From positions 6,227-70,226 of the forward strand of contig JAUYMS010000021.1 of the NCBI GenBank assembly GCA_030698625.1: a stretch of 64,000 bases of DNA, in the 5' to 3' direction. Position numbers and translations under genes: made by a program. A model generated the notes under the pieces. That model was not told the DNA's origin, ran no database searches, and worked only from the letters and a program-made list of their open reading frames with translations. This document shows, piece by piece, positions 33,411 to 64,000 of the stretch (position 1 is its first letter; every line of letters begins with the position of its first letter). The stretch is from Candidatus Omnitrophota bacterium. Lineage in GTDB: Bacteria; Omnitrophota; Omnitrophia; Omnitrophales; Aquincolibacteriaceae.

Positions 33411-33447
33411 CGGTGAGTGAAGGAGAAATACCTCTATGAGGGCGATG

Positions 33448-34005: not shown

Positions 34006-34090
34006 GAATCATGATAATCAGGGAATCGGGATTATTCAAGGGCATTATGATAAAGTTGCAATTTATGTATGCGTAATAGCAAAATATTAA

Positions 34091-34119
34091 TTGACAAATA
34101 ATTATATTATGGGTATTCT
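34091..34119 (+). promoter_or_regulatory. putative sigma70 promoter for comEA: TTGACA-N17-TATTCT
   Basis: -35 TTGACA at 34091-34096. 17-nt spacer. -10 TATTCT at 34114-34119, in the AT-rich divergent gap. Confidence 0.4.
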
Positions 34120-34150
34120 CCACCTAATTCTAAATAAGGAGGTGAAGCCA

Positions 34151-34471
34151 ATGCAAAACGTATTAACCAGATCAAGGTGGTTCCAGGCTTTCCTGGTACT
34201 GACCCTTCTTCTTGGCGGTACTTCGCTACTCCCGACCCCTTGGGCCTACGGGGCTCCCGTGAATACGTCTCAGAACGCAGGTCAAATCAGCGTGAATGAG
34301 GCGAATTTTGAGGAACTCCAGGCCATACAAGGCGTTGGGCCGGCCGTTGCACGCCGGATTATTGAGTACCGTGAAGCAAACGGGCCATTTAGGCTCCTTG
34401 GAGATTTGACCCTGGTCCGCGGAATAGGAACGGTCAAGTTTCTTCAGATCAAACCACAAATCAGGTTATAA
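34151..34471 (+). CDS. comEA: ComEA-like helix-hairpin-helix DNA-binding protein
   Basis: AAGGAGGTG RBS 6 nt before ATG 34151. Signal/TM segment WFQAFLVLTLLLGG. HhH region ELQAIQGVGPAVARRIIEYREANGPFRLLGDLTLVRGIG. Confidence 0.8.
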   Translation: MQNVLTRSRWFQAFLVLTLLLGGTSLLPTPWAYGAPVNTSQNAGQISVNEANFEELQAIQGVGPAVARRIIEYREANGPFRLLGDLTLVRGIGTVKFLQIKPQIRL

Positions 34472-34508
34472 CAACAACCGAGGAAGCAAAATCGAGGTTT
34501 GACAGGAC

Positions 34509-34544
34509 AAAACCCCCGCCTCACCGGCGGGGGTTTTGTATTTG
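34509..34544 (+). terminator. rho-independent terminator after comEA
   Basis: Stem cccccgcc (34513-34520) / ggcggggg (34526-34533), 5-nt loop, then ttttgtattt. A-run on the 5' side means it may act bidirectionally. Confidence 0.6.
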
Positions 34545-34680
34545 CAATGTATAGCATGAGCTAGAGCATACAAGTTTAATTCCGCATCTGTTTGTATTCA
34601 CGCCTAAGGCCGCGCAACTTTCCGTAAGTCGTTTGTAAATCAAGTACTTACAAGCTAACCTTTACGACACACTAGATTTT

Positions 34681-34709
34681 TTGAAAGTTACCTGAAAGAC
34701 CAGGATAAC
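34681..34709 (+). promoter_or_regulatory. candidate promoter of the giant gene: TTGAAA-N17-GATAAC
   Basis: -35 TTGAAA at 34681-34686. 17-nt spacer. Weak -10 GATAAC at 34704-34709. Located in a ~220-bp AT-richer leader. Confidence 0.3.
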
Positions 34710-34716
34710 GTCAAGC

Positions 34717-34735
34717 GAATGCAAGACTTGCATTC
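34717..34735. promoter_or_regulatory. perfect 9-bp inverted repeat GAATGCAAG-a-CTTGCATTC (operator-like)
   Basis: Read directly from sequence. It sits between the candidate -10 and the RBS (AGGAGAAG 34742-34749) of the giant gene. Confidence 0.35.
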
Positions 34736-34768
34736 ATTTTTAGGAGAAGACCACACCTTCAAGAAAAA

Positions 34769-34846
34769 ATGAAATCGAGACGTCTACTAAAACTCATAGC
34801 CATTGTCACATCACTTTGTTTTCTCTGTGAGCAAACCTTGTATGCC
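34769..34846 (+). other. signal-peptide-like N-terminus of giant protein (MKSRRLLKLIAIVTSLCFLCEQTLYA)
   Basis: Basic n-region, hydrophobic core, A-x-A-like end. Read from sequence. Confidence 0.5.
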
Positions 34847-37800
34847 GATATGGCAGCGAGCGTTCACCGCTTTGCGAATGCTAGCAAAACAGAATTCGAT
34901 ATCCCTGCATCAATTCAGGCGACGCTTCCGTCCGAGCTAGGGTTTGTTGAGGAAGTCTGGATTCCCGCGGAGTCCCCTGAACAATTCCGTTCTGTCGTTC
35001 TGATTCAGGATGCCCACGGGCAGTACGGTGCCCAGAAGAATATCGAAGGAGTTCTCGAGTTTCTTCGCGAAAAATACAAGCTCTCTGCGATTTTCATCGA
35101 GGGAGGTGCAGGGCGCCTCGAACCGGAACGCTTAAGATTTTTTCAAGAAGACGAGTTCAACCGCGAAGCTGCCGATCTTTTGACTCGCGAATCCGAGATC
35201 GGCGGCCCTGAGATCTTTCTCCTACTTGACTCGATCGCAAGACGAAAACCCGTTCCGGCTTTTGGCGCTGAAGTTCCGGATCTTTACCTCGACAACCTCG
35301 AAGCTTACCGTGCCGTCATGGCTCGCAAGGAAACCACCGATCGATTCCTCGAAAACGAAATTTCTACACTTGTCTCCGACTGCTCCCGGATCTTCAGGCC
35401 TGAGCTGCAGAAGTTTTTCAAGAATTGGCTTCTCTACGAACGGGAAGAAGTCGATTTTAACCATTATTTGGATGTGATGACTAAGCAGGCTCAAGAGAGT
35501 CTCGGCGTGGACCTCAGAGATCCTCGCGAACAGATCGAATGGCCGATGCTCGTGCGTCTGGCTGAAGTGAGAGCCAGAGAGAAGGGGCTCGATTACGAAA
35601 AAGCGAATCAAGACCGGCTGCGTTTGCTTGAGTGGAGTCGGGATAATCAGATCGATAACTCTCTTAGTGGATTCCTCGAAGCGGAGATGAGGAAGGAAAT
35701 TCAGGACAGGCGCTCTTTCTGGGAGCTTTTTTATGCCGAAGCCAATCCGAAGGGGTTTGAGTTCGGTGAGTACCGTGACTTGGCTCTCTCGGAAGGGTTC
35801 CATATTCTGCGGAGTGAAATCGATTCCAAAAGACTCTTTCGCGAGATCGATCTTCTTCGTGACCGTACGCTCGTGGCGTTGGCCACCGATGCGGCCGAAC
35901 ATGAGCTCGTGAACCGGTTTCGTACCCACCTGCTCCTAAGAAAACTCTTCAAACTCGAACTCAGCCGTGAAGAGTTTGATCTGCTTAAAGATTCGGCCTC
36001 CGGCACCGTCATGGCTTCTAGTGAAGTTGAGGAAGTCTATGCGGACGCTCTTAGATTTTACCAACTGGCTCGCCGACGCGAAGACGCCATGGTCGAACAG
36101 ATTTTTAAACAACTGCAGGATGACAGCAGTCTCAAAAACATCGCACTTGTCGCCGGCGGGTTTCATACCCAGGGGCTCACGTCGCTTCTGAGAAAATCCA
36201 GAGTCCCTCATGCCGTTGTTAGCCCTCATATCCGGGAAATAGAAGATCACGACAAATACCGCGCCTCACTCATGGGCGAAGCGCCTGTCCTGGATCTGGA
36301 GCAGTATCACTTGCGCGGAATCAACTTTATCGTCGCCGACGGCGTATGGAACGGCCGTCTTCCTCAGGATGTTCGTGATCGCCGCGCCGCGGTTGTTAAA
36401 GCCGTTATTGCCAGCGTACTTGCACGCGGGGCGACACTTTTGAGTGGGCCCAAAAGGTCGGAACTGCGTGCTTCCGAACCGACTCCCGCAGCAATGGAAG
36501 CCGCCCGGCAAATGTACGATCTTGTTAGTGCTGACTTCGTCGCGACGCGTGCCATGCTCGCAACCGTTCGTGACGGAAATGTGCCGGCGATGTCAATCGT
36601 CGCCATGCGACTTCTTGACATTGCTCTTGAGGAGTTTCCCGCTACGCGGGCCGTCGACAATCTCGGTGCCTTGGGATCTTATCTGGCCAGCTTAAAACGG
36701 TCGGCACGGTCCGAGCTCAGGACGTCTTCGGGGCGTAGAAGGACCCATCGCGTTTCCGTGAAACCCGATCTGACCTATTCCGTGGAAATGGTCGAAGACC
36801 TCTTGGATCCAAAGAATCAAATCCTTAAGGAGGAAATCAGCAATAGAAAGACCTTGGTCGTACTGGATCGCGGCATAGGCGAAAGGCAAATAGCAAAGGT
36901 TAAAGATTACTTCAGGGAATCCAAAATCAGGGCTGCCTTTGTCGAACTCGAAGGTGGAGAGGCCGTCAAAGACGGAGAAGAAGGGAGAAAGAACATAGAC
37001 TTAATAGCGCGTAAAGCGGAGGCATTCGAGTTGGACCGTAAAGCGGTCATTGTGATAGTCGGAGGCGGTGCCGTGCTGGACGTGGCGGGGCTTGCGGCAA
37101 GCCAACTTCATCGCGGCGTTCCCTATATTCGCATTCCGACTACATTGCTGGCCCAAATCGATGCCGGAATTGGCGTTAAGACCGGTATCAATTACTTTGA
37201 TCAGAAGAATTTTTATGGGACCTTTTATCCGCCTCAGTCGGTATTGGTGGACCCGCAACTCTTAGCTTCCCTCGACGAACGGCAAATGCGCTCGGGCCTG
37301 GCCGAAGCCGTGAAAGTCGCGCTCATGAAAGATTCCCGCTATTTTGACTTGCTCGAGCGAGGTTATGAGGACGTTTTGGGTAAGAATTTCAGCGGTGATA
37401 GTGCGGCGCTCGATATCATGTGGCGCTCCATCATCCTGCATCTCGAGCAAATCAAGACCGACCCCTTTGAAACTAAACTCACCCGGCCGCTCGACTACGG
37501 CCACGAATACGGGCATCGCTGGGAAAGGGTAACGCTCGAGAAATTCGGGAAATTCGGCGAGGCGCACGTCGCGACCCACGGCGAGGGCGTATGGTTCGGC
37601 ATGGCGATAGACACGGTGATTTCCTGGCAGCGGGGTTATATTACCGCCGCACAGCGCGATCGCGTCCTCAACCTCATAGATGCCATTGGTTATAACAACA
37701 CTGCGGTCGGTGCGATTCCTACCTATGACTCCCGTGCTACGGTCAACGCCCTTTGGCCGGGCGTGGAAAGTTTTCGCAGGCATCTAGGCGGCAAACTCAC

Positions 37801-40800
37801 GATATCTCTGCTGGCCGCTATCGGCGAGAAAAAAGACGTCACGCAACTGCATAAGGCAGCGCTGGGTAATGCCCTGCGTTTTCTGAAGAAACGCGCCGCG
37901 GTACGGTCCGAGCTGCGCAACGGGAATAAATTGGTTTTTGCGGGCCACAAATTGACCGAAGCCGATTTGCCCGATCCTGACGCATTCCGGATTTTGTTCG
38001 GAGAGGCGGGCGAAAAGGTTGATGCGGGGCTCGACCTCCCGCAGCGCTCGGAGCTGCGCTCGACTGGCTCGACTTCCGACGAGTTTGCCAAAGAGGAAAA
38101 CTTTCTCAGGACCGAGGCCATGATTGCCCATTTGTATACGGGGCGTGTCATCGAGTCATTGAGCCGAAACCAGATTCCCACGTGGATCACCGGTTTTTTT
38201 CATGACAAGGTTGTTAACGGCAAGAAAAGAGAATCCGTCCTGACAGCGGCGAGGCGGTATTTTCGGCGCAACCTGGCCAGGGGCGTTGCATCTGTGTTAG
38301 GGTTGACGGGCTACTGGGGAGCGATCAAATCGACTGCGGCCGACCGGTATATTTTTTGGCTCGACAACGACGAAGAGCTGCAAGCCTCGGGCATGGAGCC
38401 CGTTCTTATTCACGGTGATGATTACCGCATGGACAAGATACCGTTGAGTGAAGCGCCTTCCGACATCCGCGAGCAGTTTGAAACCCTTCAGCATGCGATG
38501 ATTTTGGCGGAGCGCTTGAAGTTGGAAGACGCCGACAACCCCGAGGGAGATGCCATTGCCCAGGGAATCAGGCAGTCCTACCGCGAATTCTCAAGACGCC
38601 TCTACGACCTCGGACTGCGCATTTACGATCTGCATGAAGGTAAGGTCGGGCTGGAATTGGAACAGGTCTTCGATTTCCGCCGCCTTGCCCACCTCATGCT
38701 TGCACTCAAGGGCAAAATTCACAGCACCTATGACCGCGGCCTCATGACCGAAGCGGAATACCGTGAAGCGCATTACCGCCCGATCGCCGATTCGCGGACC
38801 CGCAAGCTTCACCGTATCGCGCTGGGTGAGAACGGCCGGCCGCGCTATCTCCTGGGCCTGGCGCATCCGATTTATGCGGAAATCGTCGAAAACGGCGGAG
38901 GGGCGGCCGTATTAGAATTTCGCCGCCAGACAGAAAGCGGCAAAATTGAAGAAGTCTCGCTTAATGAAATCGACGACAAGACGGAGTTCTTCGAACGTGA
39001 CGTGGCGCTCGACCCCGAAGTAGACGTTCGCGCTGACGGTAGCCGCCGCTACCGCCTGCATTTCGGCCGGGAGATGCGCTATGAAGAAGACTCGCATATC
39101 GATCTTATCCTTTCGGCGGACGGCACAAAGCTAACGATTGAATACGAACAAGGGGAGCCCGCTCTTTACGTCTCTATTCCTTTAACGAAATGGCGCATTC
39201 GGAACCGTTTCGTGGTGGGGGCTGCGGTTGCGCTGCGGCACTGGACCCGGGGGTGGATCAATCTTGTGCGTAGTACGCCGACCGGTCTCGAGCCCGTGGC
39301 CCTCAAACATTATGACTTTCCGGCCAAAGTGTTGATCCGCCACAAGCCGACGCCCACCAAGCTGTATTTTGTCGAGTCTCTCCTGCTCCCGTTGCTCAGT
39401 GACGAGTACCCCGAAATTCGTTATCCCGGTGTCTACGACGATCTGGTGTTCAACAGCGGTAATTTCTGGGTACGGCTGCTGCGTGTGATGCACCGCGCTG
39501 AGGCAGCGGAACCGGGCCGGAAGGGCCCGCTGGAAGATGTCAAAAACATGCGCACGGAACGCCACTTTGTGCTCGAGGACGGCCGTCTCCAAGAGCGAGC
39601 CGGCGAATCGCGAGTCGTCTTGAGCACCCACAGCCGCATCGAAGAGCTTTTCCGCTTGTGGCTTTACGATTACCTGAACGAAGTCGAAGCGGCAGACACT
39701 ATTGAGGAGGAATTTGCGATGGATTCGCGCGCCCTGGATTCTGAGCTCAACGATGTGCTCCGCCGGACCATCGAAGAAAAGATCCGAAAAGCCGGGCTTG
39801 AGCTAAATGCGACCATTCATTCCGTCAACGGCGTTCAGGCGGCAGAGGTCGGCGATCTCCTGATCAAATTTATGCGCGTTCCCAAAGAAGAAGGCGTTTA
39901 TGAATTGAGTCCGGCCTTGCAGCGATTCTATGAGGAGCGTATCAAGCCGGGGGCTGGAATGGAGTTCATCGCAGGCTCGCTTGTTGATCTGTCGGGGCTT
40001 GGGCCCATCAGGCTCCGGGATGAAGACGGGCAGGAGCAGACCATTCGGCTGGGGACTGTGCTCGTGCAGCCGCGGGCCATGAGCCTGCGCGAATTTCTTT
40101 GGCGTCTCGACGAGGGGATCGAGCAGGCGCGCGCCTTCGCCGACGGGGACCGCGAACGGGACTACATGCGCTTGGCCGAGTCTTTGCTCGAGCAATCGAT
40201 TCGAGACGATATCGCGCTGGGGCGGCAAGGCCTTGTCAACACCCGGCCGCACCGCAACTTCCATCAAAAGGACGTCTTTACGCGGCACGGAACGGCCATG
40301 CCGTTTCATGCGTCACTCAGCAGTTTGAGTGTCCGCATGGAAGATTACGATCCGGCGGGCTATTACCGGGTTCTCGATGATACGTCCGGAGGGAAGTCCG
40401 TTGTTCCGCCGCGTTTTCAAGCCACCTATCGCAAGCTGCTCGACCGGTTGCTGCCGAGTAAGAAACGGTTTGAGAGGCGTATTTTCGGCAGGAATCCCGA
40501 GAAACACCGTGTCTCGCGCACGATAGACTGGGAAATCGCCCGCGCTGCCATCAACTACATCGCAGAGCGTATGCTTCCCGTGAAGTTCCGTCTCCTGCGC
40601 GAGCGTCAGATCGAGCCGCTATTGGCCTCCGATAATGCGCTTGCGGAATTTAAGGGCGTTTCGTTTGAAACGGCGCGGAAGCGGCTGCTCGCTTATGTGT
40701 TTATGGTTAAAGAAACGCTTGCCTACGGAAAGACAGCTCACTATGCCGCTCTTGAAGACGCCTATGTCGACCTGCTCGGGGATCCCGCTGCGACGACCGG

Positions 40801-43800
40801 AGATGAACTTCTCAGACTGCTCAAGAGCAGCTTCGAGGCATCCCGTCAAAAGCACGGCTCTCTTCGCGACCCGAGTTCCCGAGATTCGCTGTTTATCGCG
40901 CTCTTTTTGAGGGATGCTACCGAAATTGTGGGACAAGGTCCCCAGCGCTCGGAACTCCGGGCGGACCGCACGCTCGGTGAAGTGCTCGATTCCATCATTG
41001 ATGACACACAAACAGAAAAGTGGACACGCGAGCGTTGGCAGGATGAATTTGAAATCGTTCTGAAATACGTTCACCCCGACCTCGTCAAGGAGGCGGGAGC
41101 CCCCGTGCCGGAACGGACGGCGCTCGAAGCGAGAGCTGTCGAGATTCGTGAGGCCGATCAAAGCGGTGTTATGACGACGCTCGTCAGCAATCTGCCGCCG
41201 CCGGGCGGTTTTTTCGGCAGCGGCGGCGCTATCGAGTTTGACCTTTTCAAGATGTTATTTACCTCTTATGCCGCGCATCTCAACCGCATCCTCAAGGGCG
41301 TGCAGGAAGATGAATCTCTCGGAGAAGTCGAAGTGCCGACGGAAATCGACATTACCGCGCCCATTGAAGAGCAGCATGAGCTTTTTCGCCATGTCCTGCG
41401 TTTGACAGAAAGACAACGCGGATACAGCATTAACTTTACGCTGCTTGTCGCGGGTCTCGATCCCGATGAGATCAATAATCCCGGCGCAGAGTACACGCCG
41501 GCCGCGGCCCTGATCCTGAGGCAGGCTGGGTTCCATGCCGCCCATTTTGCCAGTGACATGGCCCGAACCTTTCGTCCGGAGGCGGAACCTGTACTCGTGG
41601 ATCCCGAAGATGTTTTGATTATATCCCGCTTTAATCCTATTCGCCACATCACGGTCAAATCCGCTGATGGCGGGTATCCTCCGTATCTCGTGGTGGAATT
41701 CAGCCGTGCATCCGGTGAACAGATCAGCCGGTTTCAACGTATTCATTTATTGAAGGCTGCATTGCCCGACCAACCGGTTGCCCAAGAGGTTACGAGCGAG
41801 TTCGTGCGTAGTGGTTTCGTGCATGAGCTTGGGGGCGAGTCGGGGTTAAATTCCTTTGCCTTTGATTACGACACAGCTCCCGAAGAACGCGCGGCGAAGA
41901 TCGCCCGCTTGAAGGCACTCGCCGAGCAGGAACTGCTCCTGATCCAGGACCGGTACATGCCGGAGGTGACTCAGGAGACCATTGAAAGATTCGCGAAATT
42001 TGTCGGCCGCTCGGAGCAGGAAAGGCATGCCATGGCGTTGGGTTATCCGCATATTGTGCACGAACAGAAGCTCGGGCGCGAGCGTACTCACTTTGCCAAC
42101 AAGACGGGTATCGCATCCCCGGGGCTTGGTGCCAATGACGACGTTCAGACACGCCGCTTTCGCCGCTTGCGGGTGTTTTGGGAACAGCGCAATCTGAGCC
42201 GCTTGAAGGACGCCATACTCTATGCCGGGGAAGAGGAGGAGTCGGCACGTCGTGATATCTCCGATCGGGTCAGGCAAGGGAAGTTGGAATTGCCTGAGGG
42301 TGACGGCGCGGAAAAGAAATTCGAGGAGGAGGTCGCGGCACTCACCGCGGATAGAGAGCGCCTAACGGTTTACTCGCCGCTCGTGGCCCTGTATTTGGCT
42401 GCCGACGGTGATGGGAATTTTCTCATTCCCGATAACGCGGCTGATGCCTATCTCGCATGGCTTGAGGACCTCAGCAAACAAGGTCTGCAAAAGAAATTTG
42501 CCGAAGCATTGAAAGAGGCCAAAGCCGGAATCAAACCGGCCGGTGAAACACGGACCGACGGACTGATTGCCGATGAAATCGGGGATATCCTTGAGCTGGA
42601 AGTCCTCTACCGTCTTCTCTATGAGCATCTTCGAACAGCCTCATTTTTTGATCGCGAGAGCCGGTCGAAATTTTGGCTCAATCTGAACCATTATCACGAG
42701 TTTTACCGAAACAGCGATGTGACTTCAAGCCGTCTCTGGGCGCTCGCGCGCTCCCATTTTGAAGACAGTATTCGCAGCGATCTTGGCGATGCCTGGAACC
42801 ACCTGCAGGAGTATTTCCTAAAGCCTCAGGATATGTCCGCAGGCGCAGAGGTCAATGCGGCTGCCACCATGATCGCCAATCAGGACCGCAAGTTGTTGCC
42901 TGCGGAACTGCCCGATCTTCTTCGCGGCGCGACAGAAAAGATTCTCGGTTCACAGACCGTTCATCTGACGAGTGCAGCCACAACGGCAGATAGGTTGCCC
43001 GGTATTTTGAGCACTTTTCTCAAAGGTCTAGACCGCTTCGACCTGCCGGCGCTTTCGCTTGCGAAACGAGAGGCTCTGAGTCGCCGTCAGGCCTTTTATG
43101 ATGACCTCATCCGTATCCGAGAACTTTATGAGACCGGTCGCTTTGAACAGGCGCTTCGCCTTACGAATGGCTTGCTGGGTCATGGCGAAGATGCGCCCAA
43201 GCTTTCGAAGAAACAGAGGAGAGCTTTAAGGAAGGGAAAGGAAGTTGAATTGCCGGAGGCCCCGGCCGGACTGCTGGTGCCTGCAGCCGAAGAATCGTTG
43301 CGCGAGATGCAGGCGCGTTTGCGCGAGGCGATGGCAACGGCCTCGACGGCAGCTCCTCAAGCCGATGAATCCTCTGCGGTCGTCGCAGAACCGGCTGATG
43401 TCGCAGTCGTTGAGCCAAAAGCAGTTCCCGCTCCGAAAGAAAAGCGCGAGCTTACGCCGAAACAAGAATTTATGGCTCTCGAACAGATCAGTCCGGGACT
43501 TCGGAATCTCATCGGCGAAATACTGGAGCCCTCCGCGATCGCATCCAGAAGCAACAAGCGATGGATAGCGCTTCACAATGCGTTCTTCAAGTTTTTCTTC
43601 TCAGATGACGGCAGTCAACCCAATGAATTAGAAAAGCGTGCCTGGGATATAGTGTTGGCCGCTTTTAACCGTGGTTTGGCCAAGAAACTGGCGGATGGCC
43701 GAATGGTGCCCGAGATGCGGATGGGCGATTTCTTCGATATGGCTCAGGACTACGGTAAAGCGACCGACAGACCGGAGTCCCAAGCGGATATCATGGTGCA

Positions 43801-52800: not shown

Positions 52801-55800
52801 TCCGGCCAGCGACGAGGGCATGGCGCTCTATGCTATCGGGCTCAGAGACTTTATACGGCACTTCGAGGCCGGCGACTTGTCGACGGAAAACGCCCGGATT
52901 GCGGCGGCCATCATGCCGACTGTGACCAGCCTCCTTGCCCGGCTCGAAAAACGCGCCCAATTAGTTGAAATGGTCAATACCGAAGGCAAACGTCTGGATG
53001 CCGCTCAAGAAGACGTGAGGCGTCGCGTGACGGATCTCTTCAAAAAGCTACTTTATCGAAAGGCAGATTGGCTTACTCTGACGGCAGAAACCAAAGAGAT
53101 TCGCGTGCAATCAAGCCCGGTACATCCGACAGAACAGAAAAGCGTAACCCGCTATTCCGTAACCGAGAAGATGCCGCAATCAGTCGTTACCTCGGACGAC
53201 CTCCCGTCAAATTACGACAACTTAGTCTTTCGTTTGAAGCTACTGGGAGACGTCAAGAAGAAAGTCGGCGATGCTCTCGCTGACATCGGTGAGGAGCGTT
53301 TCAATACCCACCATGATCACCTGCTGGTGGGGGAATTGACATTCGAAGAGTCGGTAAGATTCGGTATTGAAATCCAGGGCCGCGGGGAGAACCCGGAAAG
53401 CGTCAAAATTACAATTCTTGCAATGGATGCGGATGTCACGATAAGCCGTCCCAGGGGTATTCGACGCTCCGAGCTCAGAATGCAGGACGACGATGATGAG
53501 GAGGATGCTAAGCTGACGGTTGCCGAGGTCGAGCGCATTCTTTCCGAAAGCCCGAGTGTTGAAAATCTATACCGCATTATGGATAAGCTCACGGAAATCA
53601 ATAAAATTCCCGGTTCGAGCAAAAACAATCTGAGCGTTCCTCCTGCGATACTTTCATCCCTGCTCCTTCATTATGATGCCGCCGAGCGCGTGCTGAAGCA
53701 GGGGCAGGGCCTCGCCATGCAGTTGACTTACATGGGCGCGATCGCGAGTTGGTATCGCCGTCACCAAGACGACATTCTGGCCGCCTATGTCACGTACGGA
53801 GACGTCACCATCCTTGAAGCCCTTCGTGATTTCGCGGCTATTTATGCTCCGCAGGATCACATAACGAGTGCTATTCAAGCGGCGATATTTGAATTCAAGG
53901 CTCCGGCGGTTCAAGAGGAGAAGGCCGTGGAGAGTGAGGACGATGTCCTGCGCTTGAACGGTTTTAAACTGAAGGTGCGATACGCCGATCTCGAAATGCG
54001 CCGCCGGGCGACGGAAGACGTGCTCTACGGAGAATGGGCGCTCGCACCAGCTGATGCCTCGAAGCTTATGGGTATTGACGGCGACCGCCTCCGGGCGAGG
54101 CGCGCGATGCTCATGAAATATTTCAAATCCTTGCAGCCGTCTCCCCATGTCATTTTTGACCCCATTTTAAGTCCGGCACTCTTGCGTTTAAGGCTTACAA
54201 GTGTGCGAAATACGGTACTCGCGTTCCCCGAGACACTCGAGGAATTTGAAAAGCAGCTCCGGGAAGAATTGGCGAAAGAGGGTCTCGCAAGTGATGGGGA
54301 ATTCTTCAAGCAGCGTGATGACCTCTATGGCCGCGAGATGTGGGAAGCCGTAGAAAACGAGATTCGCCTGGAAAGCGAGACCCGGGCCGAATCCAACCGC
54401 GAACGTTTGCACCGGAACCTGCTGGTGCAGCAATTCCGCGAATGGTTCCTGGGCCTGTCGCCGATATTGCCGGAGGAAGCCATGCCACAAAATGTTTTTA
54501 CGGATGACCGGAGCTCCTTTGTTGTTCCCTTTGACGTCGTGCGCCATGAATCCCGCGCGACACTCTCGATCGCACCCAGGTTTCGCAAGGATGAGAACGG
54601 TGAGCCCCGCACGATTTGGCTGCGTGCGGCGGAGCACCCCGTGACCCGCGAAAAGATGATCACGCTTCACCTTCGCCCCGACGGCGAGGTCCTGGGTTAT
54701 GCCTTATGGGATGAATACGACCAGAAATTTCGTGGATATGAAGGACCGATGCTCCACACTCAATATGCCAATCCCGCTCGGCGTCACTTCGAGTCCTATG
54801 TCTATGATCCGTACAACGTCACACCGATGAAGCCGCGCCGGATGAAGGTTCGCGGCACGATTCGTGAGCAGCGGCGCATCACCCTGCTGCCGTCGTTTGA
54901 GGGCAAAGATTACAGCAATGTCTATAACGTGAATTTCAAGACGAAGGAATCCGTCAAGGTTGAGACTGTTGCCATTGCCGGTGAGAGCCGTTTTATCCTG
55001 CATCTGGCCGCAAAACCGGGGAGGCGGGAGCAAAAGATCGTACGCTACGCTCATGATGACGAAGTGAGGCTGCTTACTCCCGAAGACGAGTTGGTGAAGA
55101 GGTTAGCTTCCGATTGGACAAAGGAAATGCCGCGCGCAATTGCGTTGGACCGGACTAAGGCGGGCCTTCTGAACTTTCGCAAAGAGAGCGTCGATCAACA
55201 GGGCTTGACGGTGAGACTGCCCAAGGTCAAGAAGGATTGGGATCGCCAGGTATTTGTGACCTTCCACCTCCAACGCGTCGACGGAAAACTCCAAAAGGTG
55301 ATTGATGTTTATGGGAGAAACAAGAAATGGGATGAGGAAGGCCGTCCTGTTGAACATATCTGGAGCGGATATTACGACGAGGATGAGGATGCGATGATCG
55401 TCTTTGACGATTTTGAGCGGCGGCGTCTGGTCGGCCACGAGCGCTATGATATCCAACTGCATGCCTGGAGTTTGCGTTATGCCGAGCGCCCGGGGGATAT
55501 CTTTACACCGGCCGAGACTGAGCATCTGATTCGTCTCGCGACACTCGATAAGCCGCATACTTTGGAAGAGGTGTGGAAAAATTTCGGAGGTGAAAATTAT
55601 TCAATCGAGTATCTGGAAAGTGTCTTCAAGAAGCTGCAGTCGCCGCGCTTGACGCCTGCGAGGCGCCTTGTCCATGTCGGTAACAACCGGTACTCGTCTC
55701 TGCTGAGGATCCGGATTACCCGGCATAATGAATACACGCACAATCACCGGCGTTATCATCTGGCCTACGACAACTACGACCTGGAAGACGTAACATCCTG

Positions 55801-58800
55801 GACGGCCTTTGAAGATAACCTGCCGCTGACGCATTACTTTTTTGACCACAATGTCCCGACTCTCCATTTGAAGCATGCCTGGGATCTTGACGGCAAACTG
55901 ATCGGATTCGGCACGCGGCGTGTCGACGGCCTGGGTGAAAGTTTTGTCTTCGGTAATTACGGACTCGAGAAAAAGGCGCGCGTTTCCGTAACGACAGCAG
56001 GAAACCGATTCCGCGTTCCCGGTAAGATGGGAGAAGTGGTCGCCGGTGTGGTCGTTGATGGGGCACTGATGCGGGTCGATTGGTTTCGCAAGGGCACTGA
56101 AATTCATAATATCTATGACATGAGCCAGATCGGCTTGGGAATCATTCGCTTGAAAGACGGGATTAAGCCGACTCGGAGCGCGACGCGGGCCGAACACGGT
56201 GAACTGCATGCACGGACGCTGCAAGCCTTAGTGGACAAGACGTGGACCGCCGCATGGATGCTCGAAGATACCGTGCAGCGTGCTCTTGACGAGAATGTCA
56301 GTGCGGCGCTCAGTAAAAGGCAGGCAAATGCCGCCAAGATCGTCAACCTGGGCCCTGATAGCCGGGGCACGGGCATCTTAGGGGCTAATGACGATGACTA
56401 TGGCATCACCTTCGGCGTCCAATTCCAGAGTCGCGCCCATCTCAACAGGTTCCTCAAGAAGGGCGACATGACGGCGCTTGAAGAAGTGCGCCGGATCTTT
56501 GAGCGTGCAGGCATGCAGCTCAGTTTAAAAAAGAAGGATACTAAGCGCACCGAAGGAAAAAAGATTGAATACCTCGGTCTGTACCGGGGTCGGCATATTC
56601 CCGTCAAGATCCGCCTTTATGCGAGGGCCGACAAGAAAGGGAGTATTTACAACGACCGGTTTGAGAATCAAATGGGCAAATTAAAGCGTCTCCGCGCCAG
56701 CGCCTTCCACCTCAAAGAGGAGATTAAAAAGTTTAAGGAATTTGCGCGCGAGGCAGGCATCTATGGCGACCTGGGAGATGTGCTCATGGAACAGCTCGTG
56801 ATCCAATCGGGAGAGGCAACCCATGCCGGCACCTATATCCGTGGCCGCGGAACCGCGATTAAAGCTCTGGATTGGATTCTCAACGAAGGGTACGGGTATC
56901 GCGGCAAACCTATTCGCTGGGCGGAAGTGAAGAAGAACTTCAAGGTTCATTATCCCGGTTATACCGAAAACATCCTGGCCGAGTTGAACGCCAAGACGTG
57001 GAATCAGTTGCTGGAGATGGCCAATACATTGCGAGGAGAAATCGTCGGCCGCAGCCGGGTTTCGCGCCATATTCGATCGGGAGTGCGGAAGGGAAAACTT
57101 GAAAAGGGTCTGCGCGTTATTGACGGCAGGGAGTTTGAGGGCATGTACCTGCTTTCCGAGAATCATAAGCGCATCACTTTGTGGGGATATGTACGCCTCA
57201 ATATTCCGCCACATGCCAAACCCTCGGAAATCGAACTTCATATTGATCCGGCGCCGCACATTGCGTCTGACGCGTGGACGGCCTCTCTGTGGTACAAGCG
57301 TCCCTCGGTGCCCATCGACTCGGTCGTCATCTTTAGCAAGGGGCAACTTATCGAAAAGGGTCCCCTCGCGGACGGGCGCGCAGGCTTCGCGCCTGTACGC
57401 GGTCCGATACCGGCTATCAAGACAAAATTTCGCGTTAGGGGAACCGAGGCACAGCGGTCTCGTTCGGCGACGCTGAAGGAAATCAAGCAAGCCTATCAGC
57501 AGAGGCTGTGGCTTGTCAGCGGGGGAGGCAAGATCCCCAAAGTTCAACCGCTGACTATATACAATGGTGTCGAGGAGTTGCTTCTTGCGCAGGGTGGCCA
57601 AACGATCGAGATTCCGTTAGGAGATGAATTCAACGGGAAGCGTGCGCGGCGTTCCTGGGTCCTTTTTCCAGAACTTGGTCCGGATGCCCGCGGGGTCGCC
57701 TATACCAGGCGCATCGGCAACCGGACGATCAGAAAGGAATTCGTACTGTTTCAGAACGGACGATTTGTGAAGGCGAGACGCGTCCAAAGCCAGCGCTCCG
57801 AGCTGCGCCAGCACGGTTATGGCACCGCGACAGTGGATGAGATTGTTTCGGACTCGAGGTTTCGCACCTTGCGCTATGACCGTAATGATTTTCTGTCGCG
57901 TCAAACTCCGGAGGCCCCGGTTAATTACGCTGCGCTCCGTGAGAGTTTGAAAGAGCTGGTCTCATACGCGGCCGGCCATGCGATGCCCTATCGCGATGTC
58001 GATGCCCCCAGGATCCTGGTCCAGATGGGCCTCGAAGATAAAGCCCATATATTGCAATTTCTCGATCCGAGTGCTATCGATGCCGTCGATGTGTTTCTAC
58101 ACAGCCTCATCTACCGAATCCGCATTCAGTTCATCGAGACGCCGACCGGTCTTTTTAGATTGAACGGAAAATTCCGGACTTCTTTGATCCAGTCTGATGA
58201 TCAGAACTTCTACACGATTCAAATTCCGATTAAGGAAAAGGACGGCCGCGATTTGTTTAGTCCCGAAGAGCGGGCAGTTATTATCGCCTATGACATAGCG
58301 TATGCCGCGGGCCTGTCGAAGGGGATGGATGAGGAAGCCGCCGATGCCTATGCCTGGCTCTTTACGGGCCTTTACAGCGTTATCTTCTTCTCCAAGCCGA
58401 ATGCGGTGAAGAGCAAGTACGAAAGACTTGCTCGGGAACTTAAGGAATTCGGCGAGCCGCAGGAATACATGACGCGCATGACGGTGGGTGACGCCGTGAT
58501 CGAGATCAAACAAGGCGACCTGACACTCGAGGCTGTGGATGCGCTGGCCTATGGCTCGAATCCGGATATTCAGTTCGGTATCGGCGCAAGCGGCGCCATC
58601 GCGCGAAGAGGGGGTGACGCCGTATTAGCGGAAGCTGCTATGAAGCCGCGCCTTGCGCCGGGTGAAGCGACATCGACTACTGCGGGCGAGATGGCCGCGA
58701 AACACGTGATTCACGCGGCTGTTTCTGATGAGTTCCTGAGGACCGATCTCAATGTGATTCGCGATGCTACCCAAAGCAGTCTCATTGAAGCGGACCGGCT

Positions 58801-61800
58801 GGAAGATGTTACCTCACTTGCGTTTTCTGCTTTCGGAACGGGTACGCTCGGCATTCCCTATAACGAATCGGCAGACGTCATGCTCGATGTCATCGAAGAA
58901 CATCTGGCAAGTTCCGGCACATCTCTGAAGAAAGTGGTCATCGTCCTGTTCGAAACAGATGCTTACGACGAATACGTTGAGGCGCTCATGAGACGGAGCC
59001 GCGGCCGGTCGGAATTGCGCGACGGTATTTCTGCCCTGCTTGCGCAAATAAATCAGGAGCCGATCCCGCTCATTGACGGGCCGGTAATGATCATGATGGG
59101 CGTGATTGCCGTCACAGTGTTTCTTGTATATTACTTCATGGTCGTGCGGCCGCGCTTGCGGAAATGGGTGGAGGAAGAGCAAAAGAAGAAAGAGGTCAAG
59201 GCGTCGCGGAAGCGCCCGGTGAAGTCAGCGCGGCAGGATAGGCTCAATTATGCCGCCGAGCAGCTCGGGAAATTTAAGGCCCAGGCCACCGATCAGCGGT
59301 ACAGCTCGCAGGGGCAATTGAGAGATGCCCGCGATGCGGCGGCCAGTCGTTACAAGCAAAGGTTCGGTGAGGATAGCACCCATAAGCGTTTGAGATTAGA
59401 TCTGGCACTTGCCTTCGAGGAGATTATGCGCGACCGAGGTGTTGCAGAAACCACGATCGAAGCGGACTGGCCGGACAAGGTGAAACGGCCGCGAGTGGAC
59501 AAATGGCGCAAGTGGTTCCGCAAGCGCGGCACGGCCCTGCTTCTATATAGAGAGTTTGTTGAAAAGCAGAAGGACGATACAGAGCAGGCGGCACGGTTTG
59601 AATTCAAGGAAGGACAGTACCAAAAATACATCGATAAGTTCGGTGAAGATCCGAAAGACAAGCGCCGTCGGCAACTGAAAGCCTGGTTGGAGACGAGTTA
59701 TGAGAAAGCGCTGCGCCGTCGGGGTGCACCGGCAGAATTGCAGCCGGTCGTCGACGAGCCTGCCGCTGTGGTTACTGAACCGGCGGAACTGCCTGCCGTC
59801 CAGGGGGTCGAAGCTCAGCCCGAGCCGCACCCGGAGCCATCGGTAGCAGTTGCCGAATCGGTTGTCCATACGCCGGCGAAGCCGACAGCAGAGTCTACCT
59901 TGGAAGAGTTTCGCGCCCAAAACGCGGGGATATACAGCGGCATGGCCAGAGTGGCTGTCACGACGAGTTCGACCCGTGAGCGGGCCGATGAATTACTGGC
60001 TCAGTTTGATCAAGCCGTGCAGTCTGCGATAGAACGATTTGCGGCTCTGCTGGATGAAGAAGAGGCGGCTCGCTTCCGTGTCATTGCCGCTACTACTGAT
60101 TTTATTCTGAGCGCGCGCGCAACGATTCAGGATCATGTGCAAACCTTTGTGGATGCCGATAATGCGCGCGACTTGTTGAGAGAGGCTCTTTCAACCATTG
60201 ACCATGATATTCGCCGCCGCATCAGGCACATACGCATGGCCGACGACGGAACTGTCCCTGCCGATGCCGTAAGGTTCGACGATATTTTCCAGCATCCCGG
60301 AGTCACCGGTTTTCGGGCATTGGTGGATGAACAGCCTCTGCCGGAAGCTGAAAAAGCAGAGTGGAAGCCGCGCGCGGCCGATATCGCGGAGCAGTTAAAG
60401 GTTGTCTTGGAAGATCGCTTGGCGACGGGTGTGTGGAAGACGGCGCCGGGCATTATCGCGAACCTTGAGAGGGAATTACGGCCGCAAGTCGTCAATCTTT
60501 CTTTGCACGGTGATGCGATCAACCGGCATGAACGGGTGCGCGCGATTCGCACGTGGTTGTCTGTGAATATCCCGCATGAACGCGGTAGAAAGGATCAGGC
60601 CGATTACCACAACCGGTTGCGTGAGGTCGGAGACGTCGTTCGCCGATTGCGAGGAGAGTCAGACGCCATTCTGGCGGACCCGGAGCGGTTTCGTGCCGCC
60701 TTAGCCGTGCACGACGATCCGATTGCCTTCGGTGTCTTGGCGGCCAATCAGGGCGATTTTGAATTTGCCGAAAAAGTTTTAACATCACTTATTCTAGACG
60801 ATGTATCCAAGTCCAGAGAGGAGCAGGCGGTGAGCGCAAATGCGGCACTTGCCCTATCGGGACTCTACGATAAACGGGGCCGTTTCGGTGACGCGTATCA
60901 GCTAGTCTCGACTCAGGCCGCATATCTCAAAGCAGCAAATCCGGATTTGTCGGCTGCCGGTGACGTGCACGCTTCCGATACGCTCGCCAGGGTGCTCGTG
61001 ATTCGGGCGATTAGAGATCTTGAAGAGAGCCAAACAACGATGTTGCAGGAAAATTTGAGCCGTGATCCGGCAAACCGCTGGGTGGGCGGAGTCGTTATTT
61101 CATCCGCTCGAGTCATCGCAGGCATTCGCGATTTACAGCGCAACGTGGCCGATCTTTCGCTTCGCGGCGATGCCATTCTTGACCACCCGGCCGTGCAAGC
61201 GGCGCGTGAATGGCTCAATCGCAATCTGCCTCACGACACGGAAGGTGAGAGTAAAACCGCTTATGACCAACTGACCGCGGAAGTCGACCGCATGGCCAGC
61301 CAGCTTGTAGCTGAGTCCGCGAAAATCATCGGTGATCCGGTAACATTCAGCGAGGTTCTGAGTAACCTAGAAAACCCCGTCGCCTTTGGTGTGCAGGCAG
61401 CCTACGACGGCGATTTCGATTTCGCGGAAAAGGTCCTGCTGTCAATCGCGGGGCGCGACTTCCCGGCATTATTTCGGTCGCGTGCAGCAGGTACGACTTC
61501 AGAGAACGATGTGACGCTGCAACTACGCAGCACGGAGGCGGCCCGCCAGCTTGCCATTCTTTATGAACGCCGGGGACGCAGTGGCGAAGCTCATGCATTG
61601 CTCGAAGAGCAACTCGATTGGCTTTATCTGGTCAACCCGTGGCTGCGTAAGGAAGGCATAAGTGTCGGCAGTCAGAGTCGGCTGCGAGCCGTGGCGGCAA
61701 GCCTGGAAGCAACGTTGGCGAATAGCACGCTTCAATCCGCCGAACTTTTTAGAGCGCGCGGCGATCAAGCGGCAGCGCGAGAGGGTTATCGCCAAACACA

Positions 61801-64000
61801 GGCCCGCGTTGCACGCCTACCGAACTGGGAAAGCAATCGTGAGCTATTGAGTCTTTATCATCGCGCAGGCCTGGCTTTGGAAGAATACGAGGATGGGGTG
61901 CCCGAGACACCTCAGGATTTGGCGGCCGCGGACGAAACGGCGAACGACTCCGAAGAAATTGTCGATTTTGATTCACGACTGGACAGCATTTATGAAATGC
62001 TCCGCAGTCGGACAGCTGCCGGGTCGTTGAAGGCGGCCGAGATGTACGCCCATCGGGAAATTACGGCTTATCGGGACGCCCTTTTTAACAGCACGCTGCC
62101 TCCGGATGAGAAGGAAGCAAAGCTTCTGTCTTTGGAATCTGACTTGGCGGGCGCTGCCTTCAGGAACCTGCGGGCCATTGTTGAAAACGGTTACGAACTC
62201 ACCGATGAAGAGCAACCGCATTTCGATCAGATTGAGCGCTACCGGAATATGCTAATTGCCGCCGGGCTTGACGCCGAGACCGGTATTCCGGCAGAGGAAC
62301 GGAAAAACCGGTTACAGGCGATTGCTGACATGATTGAAGAGTTGAAGGTCGCACCGCTCAAGGCGGAGCTAAAAGATCTTGTGCCCGTGTTGTGGGACGG
62401 CGTACGCGAGTCATCGCGTCGCCGTCGCGGGCGCGAGGGTCAGGACCGTAAGGTGTTATATCCCGAGGACGTTTTTTCAGACCGCAGCGTTGTCGAGTTT
62501 CAAGAAAAGGTCAACCGCGTCCTTTCCGGCGATGATATCGCCAGAGAAGAAATCCTTGCCGAGTTTGACGATCACCTGGTTCAGATGGCGCACTTTCTCT
62601 GGAAGGGAATGAACGCGATGGCGGTTAAGTACATCAATAATCAGTGGCAGAACGCGACGATGGCGATGATTAGTGCCGGTAAATTATTTGCCAACGCAGG
62701 CAGGGCACGGAAGCAGAATGATAATGACGGGGCCGTTCGCTTTTATAATGAAATCATACGTATCACAAACGAAGAAGCCGATGATCGTGTGCCGGAATTT
62801 GTGAGGCGGTCTACCATCGTGCGGGCCGTGGTCGGGAAGTCTGCGGCGCTCCGTCACAACAGTAAATTTCAGGAAAGCCGCTTTCCCAGGGCCCTTGAGG
62901 TGGTGAAGGCTGCCTATGAAGAGGAACCGTGGAGCCATTTTCTTCTGACCGAACTCGGGTGGATTGAGTATCACTGGGGCCGTAATGTAACGGCCGGCCG
63001 AAGGAAGCATTTCGAAGAGGCCAAAAAGCATGCGCTGGAACTCGTTCGTCGAGCGCCCACCGACAGAGGCGGCCAGCACTTGTTGGCTTGGACCCATCTT
63101 GCGCTCGGAGAAAATGCCGAAGCGCTCGCAATGGCTCAGGCTTATTATAATGAACAACCGAACGAGTGGCTCGCCAACGACCTGTTAGTCTCCGCGCTCA
63201 TCGCAAATAATCGCAAAGGTGAGGCTGTGACGCTTGCGAGGAAGATCGATCAAGAAAGCATCGGTGATGTTACGAAACTGACTGACGCCGCGAAAATCGG
63301 CACCAATCGGTCAGAGTTGAGAGTGGCGCTCGTGGCTCCTGTTGCGGCCCGGTTTAAGACATCAATTGGATTGACGGCACGAATTGTGCGGCTAGGCGAC
63401 TCGGTTCTGGGTCAGATCATTGCGACTGCTTATGCGGAAGTCCCGAAGCTGGTGATTTCGACGACAACTCAGGATCAAATCACGGTTGATTACAGCCGGG
63501 TCTTTGAAATCACTCAGGGTGCCGAAGCCGTATTGTCGGCCGGTTTGCTTCGCGAGCTATCGCCGGCCGGCCGAGTTGAGTATGTCGATGCGATTTTGGC
63601 GGGTGCTGAAGACGCTGATCGGCACGCTTTACCCGTGATTCATTTTGCCGGTGATGCCACGTTGAAAGAAGAGTTATCCGCCTCACCCGCATTTCGTAAT
63701 CCTCTCGCTCATCAAATATTCAGTGTCAGTCCTCTGGAGGAGAGTCTTGTTGCGAACACGGTGAGCGCAAAGCCCGTTTCCGTATCATTAGATACATTGC
63801 CTTCGGAGTCGAATCCGCTGGCCGGTCAGATTCCTGCGATGCTCCTGTCGGCCGTAGAGCGCGACGGCGACCTTTCGGAAACAGACCGTTTTCTGCGTCT
63901 GCACCGTTTGACCCAACTTCAGCTTCTGGCCGCTCATGAACTGAAGGACCGCCTCAAGGGTGCTACGCCCGCGCGAACCGGCGAGCTGCTTGGGGAATTC
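34769..64000 (+). CDS. giant multi-domain protein (at least 9,744 aa, 3' end beyond window); modular or polyprotein-like, function unknown
   Basis: ATG 34769 is the first start codon after the in-frame TAA at 34706-34708. The frame (pos mod 3 = 2) was checked by hand at 35162, 36761, 40931, 42002, 46697, 49982, 53459, 55982, 57782, 58988, 60002, 63302 and 63962, and is the same throughout and protein-like. No frame-2 + strand ORF appears in the track anywhere in 34769-64000. That is expected only if this frame has no stop before the window edge, because the track lists stop-terminated ORFs only. All listed ORFs here are short (<=306 aa) off-frame or antisense. Confidence 0.85.
   Translation, partial: [9744 protein letters not shown]
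36455..36469 (+). other. RSELR motif 1 ([12 protein letters not shown])
   Basis: agg tcg gaa ctg cgt, in the giant-gene frame. Confidence 0.8.
36707..36721 (+). other. RSELR motif 2 ([13 protein letters not shown]), immediately N-terminal of the DHQS-like domain
   Basis: cgg tcc gag ctc agg. Confidence 0.8.
36767..37860 (+). other. dehydroquinate-synthase-like (sugar phosphate cyclase superfamily) domain inside giant protein
   Basis: KTLVVLDRG...[19 protein letters not shown] (Gly-rich NAD loop, ~37061). [41 protein letters not shown] (37134-37195; compare AroB PTTLLAQVDSSVGGKT / NLIGAFYQP). [24 protein letters not shown] (compare GHTFGHAIE). [12 protein letters not shown] (37577-37612; compare HGEAVAIGM). 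Confidence 0.75.
37904..37918 (+). other. RSELR motif 3 ([13 protein letters not shown]), immediately C-terminal of the DHQS-like domain
   Basis: cgg tcc gag ctg cgc. Confidence 0.8.
38045..38059 (+). other. RSELR motif 4 ([13 protein letters not shown])
   Basis: cgc tcg gag ctg cgc. Confidence 0.8.
40946..40960 (+). other. RSELR motif 5 ([14 protein letters not shown])
   Basis: cgc tcg gaa ctc cgg. Confidence 0.8.
46697..46711 (+). other. RSELR motif 6 ([13 protein letters not shown]), start of module A
   Basis: aga tcc gag ctt cga. Confidence 0.8.
46697..49996 (+). other. paralogous module A (~1,100 aa) of giant protein
   Basis: Begins [27 protein letters not shown] and ends ...[37 protein letters not shown]. 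Colinear similarity to module B along its whole length. Confidence 0.7.
49997..50011 (+). other. RSELR motif 7 ([13 protein letters not shown]), module A/B junction
   Basis: cgc tca gag ctc agg. Confidence 0.8.
53465..53479 (+). other. RSELR motif 8 ([15 protein letters not shown]), end of module B
   Basis: cgc tcc gag ctc aga. Confidence 0.8.
57794..57808 (+). other. RSELR motif 9 ([13 protein letters not shown]), N-terminal boundary of the Macro-containing segment
   Basis: cgc tcc gag ctg cgc. Confidence 0.8.
58487..58985 (+). other. Macro (ADP-ribose binding/processing) domain inside giant protein
   Basis: [25 protein letters not shown]...[18 protein letters not shown]...[21 protein letters not shown]...[31 protein letters not shown]...[16 protein letters not shown]. 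Matches the macro-domain pattern (GDIT..VDAIVNAAN, GGGV.GAI, G.A..T.G..L.AK.VIH.VGP, SIAFPAISTGVYG.P). Confidence 0.7.
59006..59020 (+). other. RSELR motif 10 ([13 protein letters not shown]), between the Macro domain and the TM helix
   Basis: cgg tcg gaa ttg cgc. Confidence 0.8.
59084..59146 (+). other. predicted transmembrane helix inside giant protein ([21 protein letters not shown]), followed by Lys/Arg-rich segment
   Basis: 21 consecutive hydrophobic residues flanked by PLIDGP and [26 protein letters not shown] (positive-inside style). Confidence 0.55.
60381..61656 (+). other. tandem duplication of a ~190-aa unit near the window end of the giant protein (units ~60381-60953 and ~61070-61656)
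   Basis: Unit 1 contains [31 protein letters not shown]...[36 protein letters not shown]. Unit 2 contains [33 protein letters not shown]...[36 protein letters not shown]. Confidence 0.6.
63308..63322 (+). other. RSELR motif 11 ([13 protein letters not shown])
   Basis: cgg tca gag ttg aga. Confidence 0.8.

Follow-up and report, generated by a model that had tools for sequence, protein, structure and literature searches.

An Omnitrophota giant gene with a recurrent RSELR motif, a probable Tiki/TraB-fold head and changing cargo encodes a candidate exported polyprotein

Giant genes have been described as common in Omnitrophota (West-Roberts et al. 2023, bioRxiv 10.1101/2023.11.21.568195; Nielsen & Lui 2026, 10.64898/2026.06.07.730766), and in some samples, 24-28% of the contigs encode a protein of 10 kaa or more (thousand amino acids (aa); Nielsen & Lui 2026). 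In both studies, post-translational cleavage of the giant proteins was suspected, without being demonstrated; according to one of the two papers, missing cleavage points hindered the dissection of these proteins, and cleavage itself was an important open question. Neither paper mentions Tiki, TraB, erythromycin esterase, polyproteins, a cleavage motif, RSELR or a tail, and an incomplete literature search turned up no work joining 'polyprotein' with 'Omnitrophota'. Here, we analyze a 64,000-nucleotide (nt) stretch of DNA (hereafter, the window; positions 6,227 to 70,226 of contig JAUYMS010000021.1, assembly GCA_030698625.1) that contains an open reading frame (ORF) of 9,744 codons (34769-64000 on the + strand, the 3' end lying beyond the window); its product is referred to below as the giant. 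An earlier note on this DNA had presented genes of this size as very rare; this argument from rarity was overstated, and because giant genes are already described in Omnitrophota, size alone is not new. What is new here, and was missed by the earlier note, is the layout of the protein, with a conserved N-terminal domain (the head), a recurring delimiter, RSELR, and a conserved tail.

The giant resembles the published Omnitrophota giants in several respects, namely, the phylum, the very long single ORF, an N-terminal signal peptide with an adjoining peptidase-like domain, metabolic-type enzyme domains predicted to be extracytoplasmic, and long stretches without a Pfam hit. Unlike those proteins, it contains no SecA_DEAD domain detectable with Pfam in the part within the window (all but the final ~15-50 aa), has a single internal transmembrane (TM) segment where the published giants have numerous ones, and lacks a C39 or S8 peptidase. 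With a predicted length of ~9.8 kaa, it would lie at the low end of the size range and fall short of the cut-offs of the two studies (10 kaa and 30 kaa). Archaeovorin- or Dockerin-type traits (sets of glycosyl transferases or hydrolases with methyltransferases; dockerin, cohesin or discoidin domains) were not found in the giant by Pfam searches with E-values up to 1. The gene is native to an Omnitrophota bacterium: eight housekeeping proteins encoded in the window are identical to NCBI proteins MDP3919761-81, annotated as 'MAG: Candidatus Omnitrophota bacterium' and located on an 85,091-bp contig (UvrA by itself was uninformative, with ~50% identity to proteins from many phyla), which agrees with the earlier note, where Omnitrophota had been mentioned among the candidate phyla with giant genes, and the codon usage of the giant closely follows that of the 21 upstream genes (correlation of relative synonymous codon usage, r = 0.95; G+C content at third codon positions, 0.60 vs 0.59), as expected from the codon style that the note had pointed out.

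Translation of frame 2 of the + strand, from the ATG at 34769 to base 64000, yields 9,744 codons without a single stop or N, whereas the other two + frames contain 352 and 508 stops over the same interval; the second-longest open stretch within the window is 939 aa. Given the stop-trinucleotide frequency of the window (0.032), the chance probability of 9,744 open codons is ~1e-139. The in-frame TAA that the note had placed 63 nt 5' of the ATG was located at 34706, and the ATG is the earliest ATG, GTG or TTG after it. An upstream AGGAG is present as well, but it ends 22 nt before the ATG, which exceeds the canonical Shine-Dalgarno spacing. Between the TAA and the AGGAG, ~35 nt 5' of the start codon, lies an 8-bp-stem hairpin with a T-run behind it (34717-34735, + strand), which could either terminate the upstream ORF or act as a leader element for the giant gene.

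Could the long frame be an artefact, resulting from mis-assembly, from the joining of several genes into a chimera or from the decay of a pseudogene? The sequence was assembled from short metagenome reads, the gene lacks its 3' end, and a second assembly stops covering the locus beyond ~56 kb. However, this separately assembled 22.8-kb Logan contig (run SRR13727534) shows no mismatches to the window over the 10,697 nt compared (33309-44005), and the gene call on it leaves the giant ORF open over 7,094 aa. No tandem repeats were detected in the giant, and the interval from 34 to 64 kb contains no DNA repeats of at least 30 nt, whether direct or inverted, that could mislead an assembler. Together with the lack of stops, the uniform codon usage, the match of both the head and the tail to a syntenic ortholog (see below), and the persistence of RSELR in frame up to aa 9514, these observations make an artefact highly improbable, and we consider it nearly certain that the giant ORF is a real, single gene, the uninterrupted gene that the note had proposed.

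The pentapeptide RSELR occurs 11 times in the giant (aa 563, 647, 1046, 1093, 2060, 3977, 5077, 6233, 7676, 8080 and 9514), compared to 0.039 copies expected from the composition; in 2,000 shuffles of the protein, no 5-mer of any kind reached more than 5 copies. There are no degenerate copies: every relaxed pattern recovers the identical 11 sites. Synonymous codons vary at all five positions of the motif, so that the constraint is on the protein, not on the DNA, and on this ground, a DNA-level repeat or recombination signal was rejected. Module boundaries were mapped independently of the motif, and seven of the 11 sites are no more than 17 aa away from one of them (P = 1.9e-9), the boundaries being the end of the head, the start and the end of a 3-dehydroquinate synthase (DHQS)-like domain, the start of a module denoted A1, the junction of A1 with its paralog A2, the end of A2, and the end of a macro domain. 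Specifically, site 1 (36455-36469) is located at the end of the head; site 2 (36707-36721) precedes the DHQS-like domain by 10 aa; site 3 (37904-37918) is at the end of that domain and, with site 4 (38045-38059), bounds a 47-aa spacer; site 5 (40946-40960) follows; sites 6 and 7 open A1 and A2; site 8 (53465-53479) is at the end of A2; site 9 (57794-57808) opens a 404-aa segment containing the macro domain; and site 10 (59006-59020) lies 5 aa past that domain, with the TM segment following 28 aa further on. Site 11 opens the tail. The flanks of the motif are mildly linker-like, with a 2.5-fold enrichment of Pro at position -4 and with small or polar residues before and after the motif. In the (incomplete) literature search, 'RSELR' as a whole word appeared only as a motif of PL7 alginate lyases, whose jelly-roll domain also has QIH and YFKAGxYxQ regions; an identity with that signature was rejected because no PL7 domain was detected in the giant with Pfam, and RSELR sits in linkers.

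The motif is not confined to the giant. P0009, a relative with ~25% identity, contains seven RSELR copies, which again include sites behind the head and on either side of its module, and P0003-P0006 and P0008 contain one to four. Across the family of head-bearing proteins, the broader pattern R[SA]ExR, which includes the lineage variants RSEMR, RSEVR, RAEAR and RAETR, was found 153 times against 11.9 expected, with 4-36 occurrences for five permuted control patterns. The first motif is mostly found at aa 559-733, right behind the head, and the segments between motifs have a median length of 287 aa; 22 of the 125 such segments are shorter than 50 aa (7-50 aa), forming tandem sites with short spacers. 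The presence of the motif tracks the phylogeny of the head: it is missing in all 10 members of one clade, whereas 28 of the 35 proteins elsewhere carry at least two copies. Taken together, these patterns make us confident that RSELR is a selected module delimiter.

With regard to the role of this delimiter, we give about equal weight to RSELR being a cleavage site and to all other possibilities combined. One of these, which we consider rather unlikely, is that RSELR is an uncleaved linker element that, for instance, caps the modules, is modified, or serves export or chaperones as a signal for docking or pausing, and that the giant is one envelope-anchored multi-enzyme chain. The macro domain in the chain hints, speculatively, at ADP-ribose chemistry on Arg, Ser or Glu, a strict motif in low-information flanks is what a small recognition element of any kind would look like, and the published work leaves the cleavage of Omnitrophota giants open. 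Nevertheless, the tandem sites 7-50 aa apart resemble spacer peptides rather than structural linkers, and the segments are of the size of free-standing enzymes, as exemplified by the 399-aa DHQS-like segment, both of which fit cleavage better.

The head follows a signal-peptide-like N-terminus (aa 1-26, 34769-34846; MKSRR, a hydrophobic core and LYA/D), with the same kind of start in all members of the head family. A homology search with aa 1-1100 of the giant delineated a conserved region at aa ~50-510 with 22-30% identity to its relatives, which include an Omnitrophica partial protein and several proteins of 1,200-1,800 aa without Pfam domains; the region is found at the N-terminus of P0001 and P0003-P0009. 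A metagenome scan, for which a 5-sequence alignment of the head was used (a 10-sequence alignment was too divergent), recovered at least 271 relatives carrying the head. In the 80 loci analyzed further, the head-bearing ORF very often runs without a stop for 3,800-3,900 aa, which is as far as the DNA examined extends. Free-standing head-only proteins of ~500-550 aa, with no cargo or tail, are found as well (L101, L121, L123, L143, L151 and L153).

In an AlphaFold2 (AF2) model of the head (aa ~50-505, 34916-36283; pLDDT 77.8), a ~280-residue helical insertion splits the two halves of a core with the parallel beta-sheet fold that is common to Ere, ChaN, TraB, HopBA1 and RRSP. H83 and E111 are invariant in the family, at least 90% of the members share D81 and H466, and R437 is invariant or nearly so. 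The active members of this superfamily possess a 2His/2Glu set, E3900-x-H3902, E3930 and H4030 in RRSP and H85/E113 in Bcr135 (PMC6254334). D81-x-H83, E111 and H466 of the head match this set, with the same His-to-Glu spacing of 28 residues in each protein and with Asp as the first acid where RRSP has Glu. In a Foldseek search, EreC and BcR135 ranked highest among the hits that are not coiled coils, below significance; none of the Pfam models of the superfamily matched the head above threshold, and a head profile had no match among PDB sequences. On balance, we find it likely that the head adopts the Tiki/TraB/Ere fold, and judging from the conserved residues, it is probably a divergent member of this hydrolase superfamily and predicted to be active, as either a peptidase or an esterase.

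If RSELR is cleaved, the protease has to come from somewhere. Searching the flanks of the head genes, we found no conserved neighboring protease or transporter, and a conserved partner gene for the family was rejected because none recurs there; the cis-encoded head is therefore the only universally co-occurring candidate for the cutter. It is also the most economical one because TIKI and RRSP, relatives with the same fold, are sequence-specific endopeptidases. We regard the head as a tentative candidate for this role only. The alternative, which we consider rather unlikely, is that RSELR is cut by some other protease, encoded by the bacterium or by its prey, and that the head has a different role as an effector or enzyme, such as that of an esterase or, as RRSP in MARTX toxins, of a protease with external targets. 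The head clade that lacks the motif demonstrates that the function of the head and the motif are separable; two structural neighbors of the head, RRSP and HopBA1, are effectors with targets in the host; and a motif ending in Arg suits many Arg-specific proteases. This alternative is countered by the lack of any protease gene recurring beside the family members and by the retention of the motif through cargo turnover in clades 2-6, where the head is the sole constant partner of the motif besides the tail.

That cargo does turn over is apparent from a positional ortholog of the giant on a 251-kb metagenome contig (L086), where the local gene order is the same as in the window: uvrA (74% identity), cutA (50%), a helix-turn-helix (HTH)-cupin gene on the opposite strand (61%), a gene for a ComEA-like helix-hairpin-helix protein (47%), and then, the head gene. 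The product of the latter is complete, with 3,795 aa, five RSELR copies and two Cys. Only the head (40% identity) and the ~270-aa tail align with the giant. In between, the ortholog encodes an RmlD-type epimerase/reductase with a kinase-like region, an enzyme dependent on pyridoxal phosphate (PLP) and a histidine phosphatase, and each of its Pfam domains is confined to one RSELR-bounded segment. Other relatives contain methyltransferase, phosphoribosyltransferase (PRTase)-like and radical S-adenosylmethionine (SAM) domains between the motifs. Therefore, the family apparently keeps the ends and the delimiter while the cassettes turn over. Furthermore, the match of both ends of the giant to one ortholog argues for a single gene rather than a chimera.

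The tail module begins at site 11 and is cut by the window end (63308-64000; aa 9514-9744); this part is 35% identical to the tail of the ortholog. Among relatives that carry the motif, 11 are complete, and in these, 257-335 aa separate the final motif from the stop. Extrapolating from the tail homology, the giant probably lacks its final 15-50 residues in the window, depending on the alignment, and the full protein would have ~9,760-9,800 aa. Sequence homology of the tail was established for the L086 ortholog only, the distant relatives showing no demonstrable similarity. The long, complete proteins of the head family, motif-bearing or not, nearly all end in x-Ala-COOH (KSA, RAA, KAA and TQA, among others).

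The cargo of the giant is the train of unrelated cassettes that the earlier note had described, and each of the cassettes listed there was recovered. The first is the sugar-phosphate-cyclase or DHQS-like domain (aa 657-1050, 36737-37918), enclosed within 5-10 aa by its 399-aa RSELR-bounded segment. It matches PF01761 and PF24621 (E = 6e-33 and 2e-19; 113.4 and 70.3 bits vs cutoffs of 24.2 and 27.6) as well as NCBIfam models, and contains the NAD-binding loop GGGAVLD at aa 765 along with DYGHEYGH and THGEGV motifs. The domain falls below the cutoffs for an equivalog-level AroB (NF004852, 312.8 vs 333 bits; TIGR01357, 200.6 vs 305), and its top PDB match is 4p53, a 'Cyclase' (1.4e-46), not a DHQS. 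Next come the two paralogous 1,100-aa modules, A1 (aa 3977-5076, 46697-49996) and A2 (aa 5077-6232, 49997-53464), which begin exactly at sites 6 and 7; self-comparison of the protein mapped them to aa ~3972-5072 and 5072-6216, with 25-47% identity. In an exhaustive HMMER search of 1.84 billion representatives, A1 had a single relative outside the giant, P0009, a 6,157-aa protein with the same head, one copy of the module and no Cys. An AF2 model of A1 built from 3 sequences was unusable (pLDDT 47.7).

A macro domain of the MacroD type (aa ~7904-8075, 58478-58993) was identified by matches to Pfam (PF01661; 44.6-48.8 bits vs a cutoff of 22), NCBIfam and the PDB. The catalytic motifs of MacroD proteins are Nx6GG[VLI]D and G[VIA][YF]G, with the loop GGGVDGAI. 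These are absent from the domain in the giant, with GIGASGAI and GTLGIP in their place, and going by these residues, it may bind ADP-ribose, which is plausible, without hydrolysing it, hydrolysis being uncertain. A strong TM-like segment (IMMGVIAVTVFLVYYFMVV; aa 8108-8126, 59090-59146; Kyte-Doolittle mean 2.49) is the only such internal segment in the giant and is not a conserved trait of the family; hydropathy thus agrees with the note on both the signal peptide and the TM helix. Further downstream, a ~190-aa unit is duplicated (aa 8549-8731 and 8769-8963, 60413-61657; 38% identity, E = 3e-28). Besides module A and the tail, the sole cargo stretch shared with another family member is aa 7190-7418 (nt ~56336-57022), which is 28% identical to aa 1556-1783 of L120 (E = 7e-14). 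Altogether, ~90% of the giant has no match in Pfam, NCBIfam, PHROG, PADLOC or PDB sequences, and permissive Pfam searches with each cargo segment (E up to 1) added nothing further. No homolog of aa 8040-9744 was found among 5.8 billion proteins, where not even the giant itself was recovered, and aa 8745-9744 had no match in GTDB genomes. As the note had maintained, the giant is neither a nonribosomal peptide or polyketide synthase nor a repeat adhesin: Pfam detected no KS, AT, ACP, C or A domains, and the tandem-repeat search no adhesin repeats.

The giant is almost devoid of Cys, with three residues in 9,744 aa (0.03%) compared to 1.1% in the 21 upstream genes (P = 8e-43). Two of the three, at aa 17, 20 and 205, lie in the signal peptide, and the relatives in the head family are likewise Cys-poor. 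Strong avoidance of Cys is typical of proteins that are exported unfolded or act outside the cytoplasm. The depletion is compatible with export of the giant but is not a proof of it.

We propose that the giant is an exported multi-enzyme polyprotein that is processed at RSELR and works in a MARTX-like manner, a reading to which we assign roughly even chances. Under this scenario, a chain consisting of a Sec-type signal peptide, a ~450-aa head, about ten RSELR-bounded cargo cassettes and a ~270-aa tail, nearly free of Cys, would be exported and then cut at RSELR into about twelve products by the protein's own head or by a separate protease. The products would include a sugar-phosphate cyclase, a macro-domain protein, the two paralogous 1,100-aa proteins and several unknowns, and the 1,430-aa segment behind site 10 would be anchored in the membrane by the TM segment, which is located 28 aa after this site. 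The cargo would act in or on a host or prey cell of this episymbiotic or predatory phylum, given that many of the cargo domains need cytoplasmic cofactors. More speculatively, and with clearly more doubt, the family might form a widespread class of secreted polyproteins that has so far gone unrecognised, with an autoprocessing head of the Tiki/TraB fold, an R-[S/A]-E-x-R cleavage grammar, exchangeable enzyme cassettes and an Ala-ending tail, through which episymbiotic or predatory Omnitrophota would deliver entire sets of cytoplasm-type enzymes into or onto other cells.

Several observations weigh against this proposal. The signal peptide was judged by hydropathy and by eye only; the TM segment at aa 8108 would be a stop-transfer sequence, so that the last ~1,650 aa may stay in the cytoplasm; and NAD-, PLP- and SAM-dependent cargo has no obvious role outside a cytoplasm. 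With regard to the head, Foldseek returned no significant PDB match (the best relevant one was EreC, with a probability of 0.66 and E = 0.056), and Pfam searches across the head family produced one weak ChaN/Tiki hit (E = 0.075, in one member); moreover, the superfamily includes esterases (Ere) and the haem-binding ChaN, so that the fold does not imply a protease. Finally, one head clade (ten proteins, ~26 kaa) lacks both R[SA]ExR and a substitute delimiter, from which it follows that the head has a function that does not need the motif, and shared ancestry alone could account for the association of the head with the motif. In this clade (L113, L154/L158, L136, L108, L122, L131, L138, L124 and L128), several members contain multiple TM-like segments; an alternative delimiter was sought and rejected since no recurrent 5-mer was found.

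The surroundings of the giant gene are ordinary chromosomal genes of a diderm, encoding LptF/G, HisRS, GlgC, RecO, PanC, PanD, UvrA and CutA. Directly upstream is the 126-aa ComEA-like helix-hairpin-helix ORF (34091-34471, + strand; PF12836 in the Logan gene call), which is syntenic in L086 and L089, preceded by the divergent HTH-cupin regulator gene (33448-34005, - strand), syntenic with L086. No type II secretion genes were found in the 34 kb upstream of the giant, and no rRNA, tRNA or Rfam families within the window. Origin from a defence system or a phage was rejected because searches with PADLOC and PHROGs gave zero hits and no head relatives were found on viral contigs. Two normal-sized ORFs in the window have no Pfam match, 7505-8821 (+ strand, 438 aa) and 24470-25279 (+ strand, 269 aa); the latter is also called as a gene, without a Pfam hit, on the Logan contig. 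Elsewhere in the family, an ORF resembling LysM/amidase proteins (peptidoglycan amidase type, judged by eye) flanks the head genes in 10 loci, for example, L150 (5708-6568), and the genome that encodes P0003 (L082 1-261; GCA_964387845.1, contig CAYLXA010000008.1) contains another very long gene, ~10 kb 5' of the head gene, with a product of 5,181 aa and methyltransferase and Peptidase_M23 hits.

The RSELR sites are the first concrete candidate cut sites for Omnitrophota giant proteins, and if the proposal is correct, they would supply the missing cleavage points. For one large family, the locus offers a testable answer, in the form of an invariant five-residue delimiter at domain boundaries, a candidate built-in hydrolase with an intact predicted active site, and a positional ortholog that keeps the ends but swaps all the cargo. 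In practical terms, the giant ORFs of the head family can be split in silico into enzyme-sized units for structure prediction, the RSELR sites can be selected for proteomic or biochemical work, and the head, which is not seen by Pfam, can serve as a marker for further members, beyond the 271 or more already found in metagenomes.

Among the known systems, the mode of action that we propose resembles that of MARTX toxins, which are likewise very large secreted proteins with conserved ends and variable, unrelated effector cassettes. The built-in protease of MARTX frees the cassettes at linkers, as proposed here for the head; the repertoire of cassettes varies between strains in MARTX and among relatives here; and the MARTX effector RRSP shares its fold with the head of the giant. 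There are also differences. The MARTX protease is a cysteine protease that cuts after Leu, whereas the last Cys of the giant is at aa 205. Regions of glycine-rich repeats are characteristic of MARTX toxins, which are exported by type I secretion without an N-terminal signal peptide; the giant has no repeats, has a signal peptide and shares no Pfam domains with them. Thus, the giant belongs outside the MARTX family, and if the proposal holds, it would represent a second, independently evolved 'MARTX-like' strategy.

Compared to the TIKI/TraB/PrgY/ChaN/Ere superfamily, the head possesses the same D-x-H...E...H set, with the H-to-E spacing of 28 seen in RRSP and Bcr135, and differs in its ~280-residue helical insertion and in its invariable position at the N-terminus of very long secreted proteins. 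Finally, surface and secreted polyproteins cut at short motifs are known in other bacteria: the gingipain and HagA precursors of Porphyromonas are cut at Arg/Lys, and adhesins of Mycoplasma hyopneumoniae at S/T-X-F|X-D/E. The proposed processing of the giant is similar in that one precursor would be cut at a recurring short motif into several extracytoplasmic products. However, the known precursors are 1-2.5 kaa in size and consist of adhesin and protease domains, whereas the giant comprises at least 12 segments over ~9.8 kaa, with a different motif and with a cargo of small-molecule enzymes.

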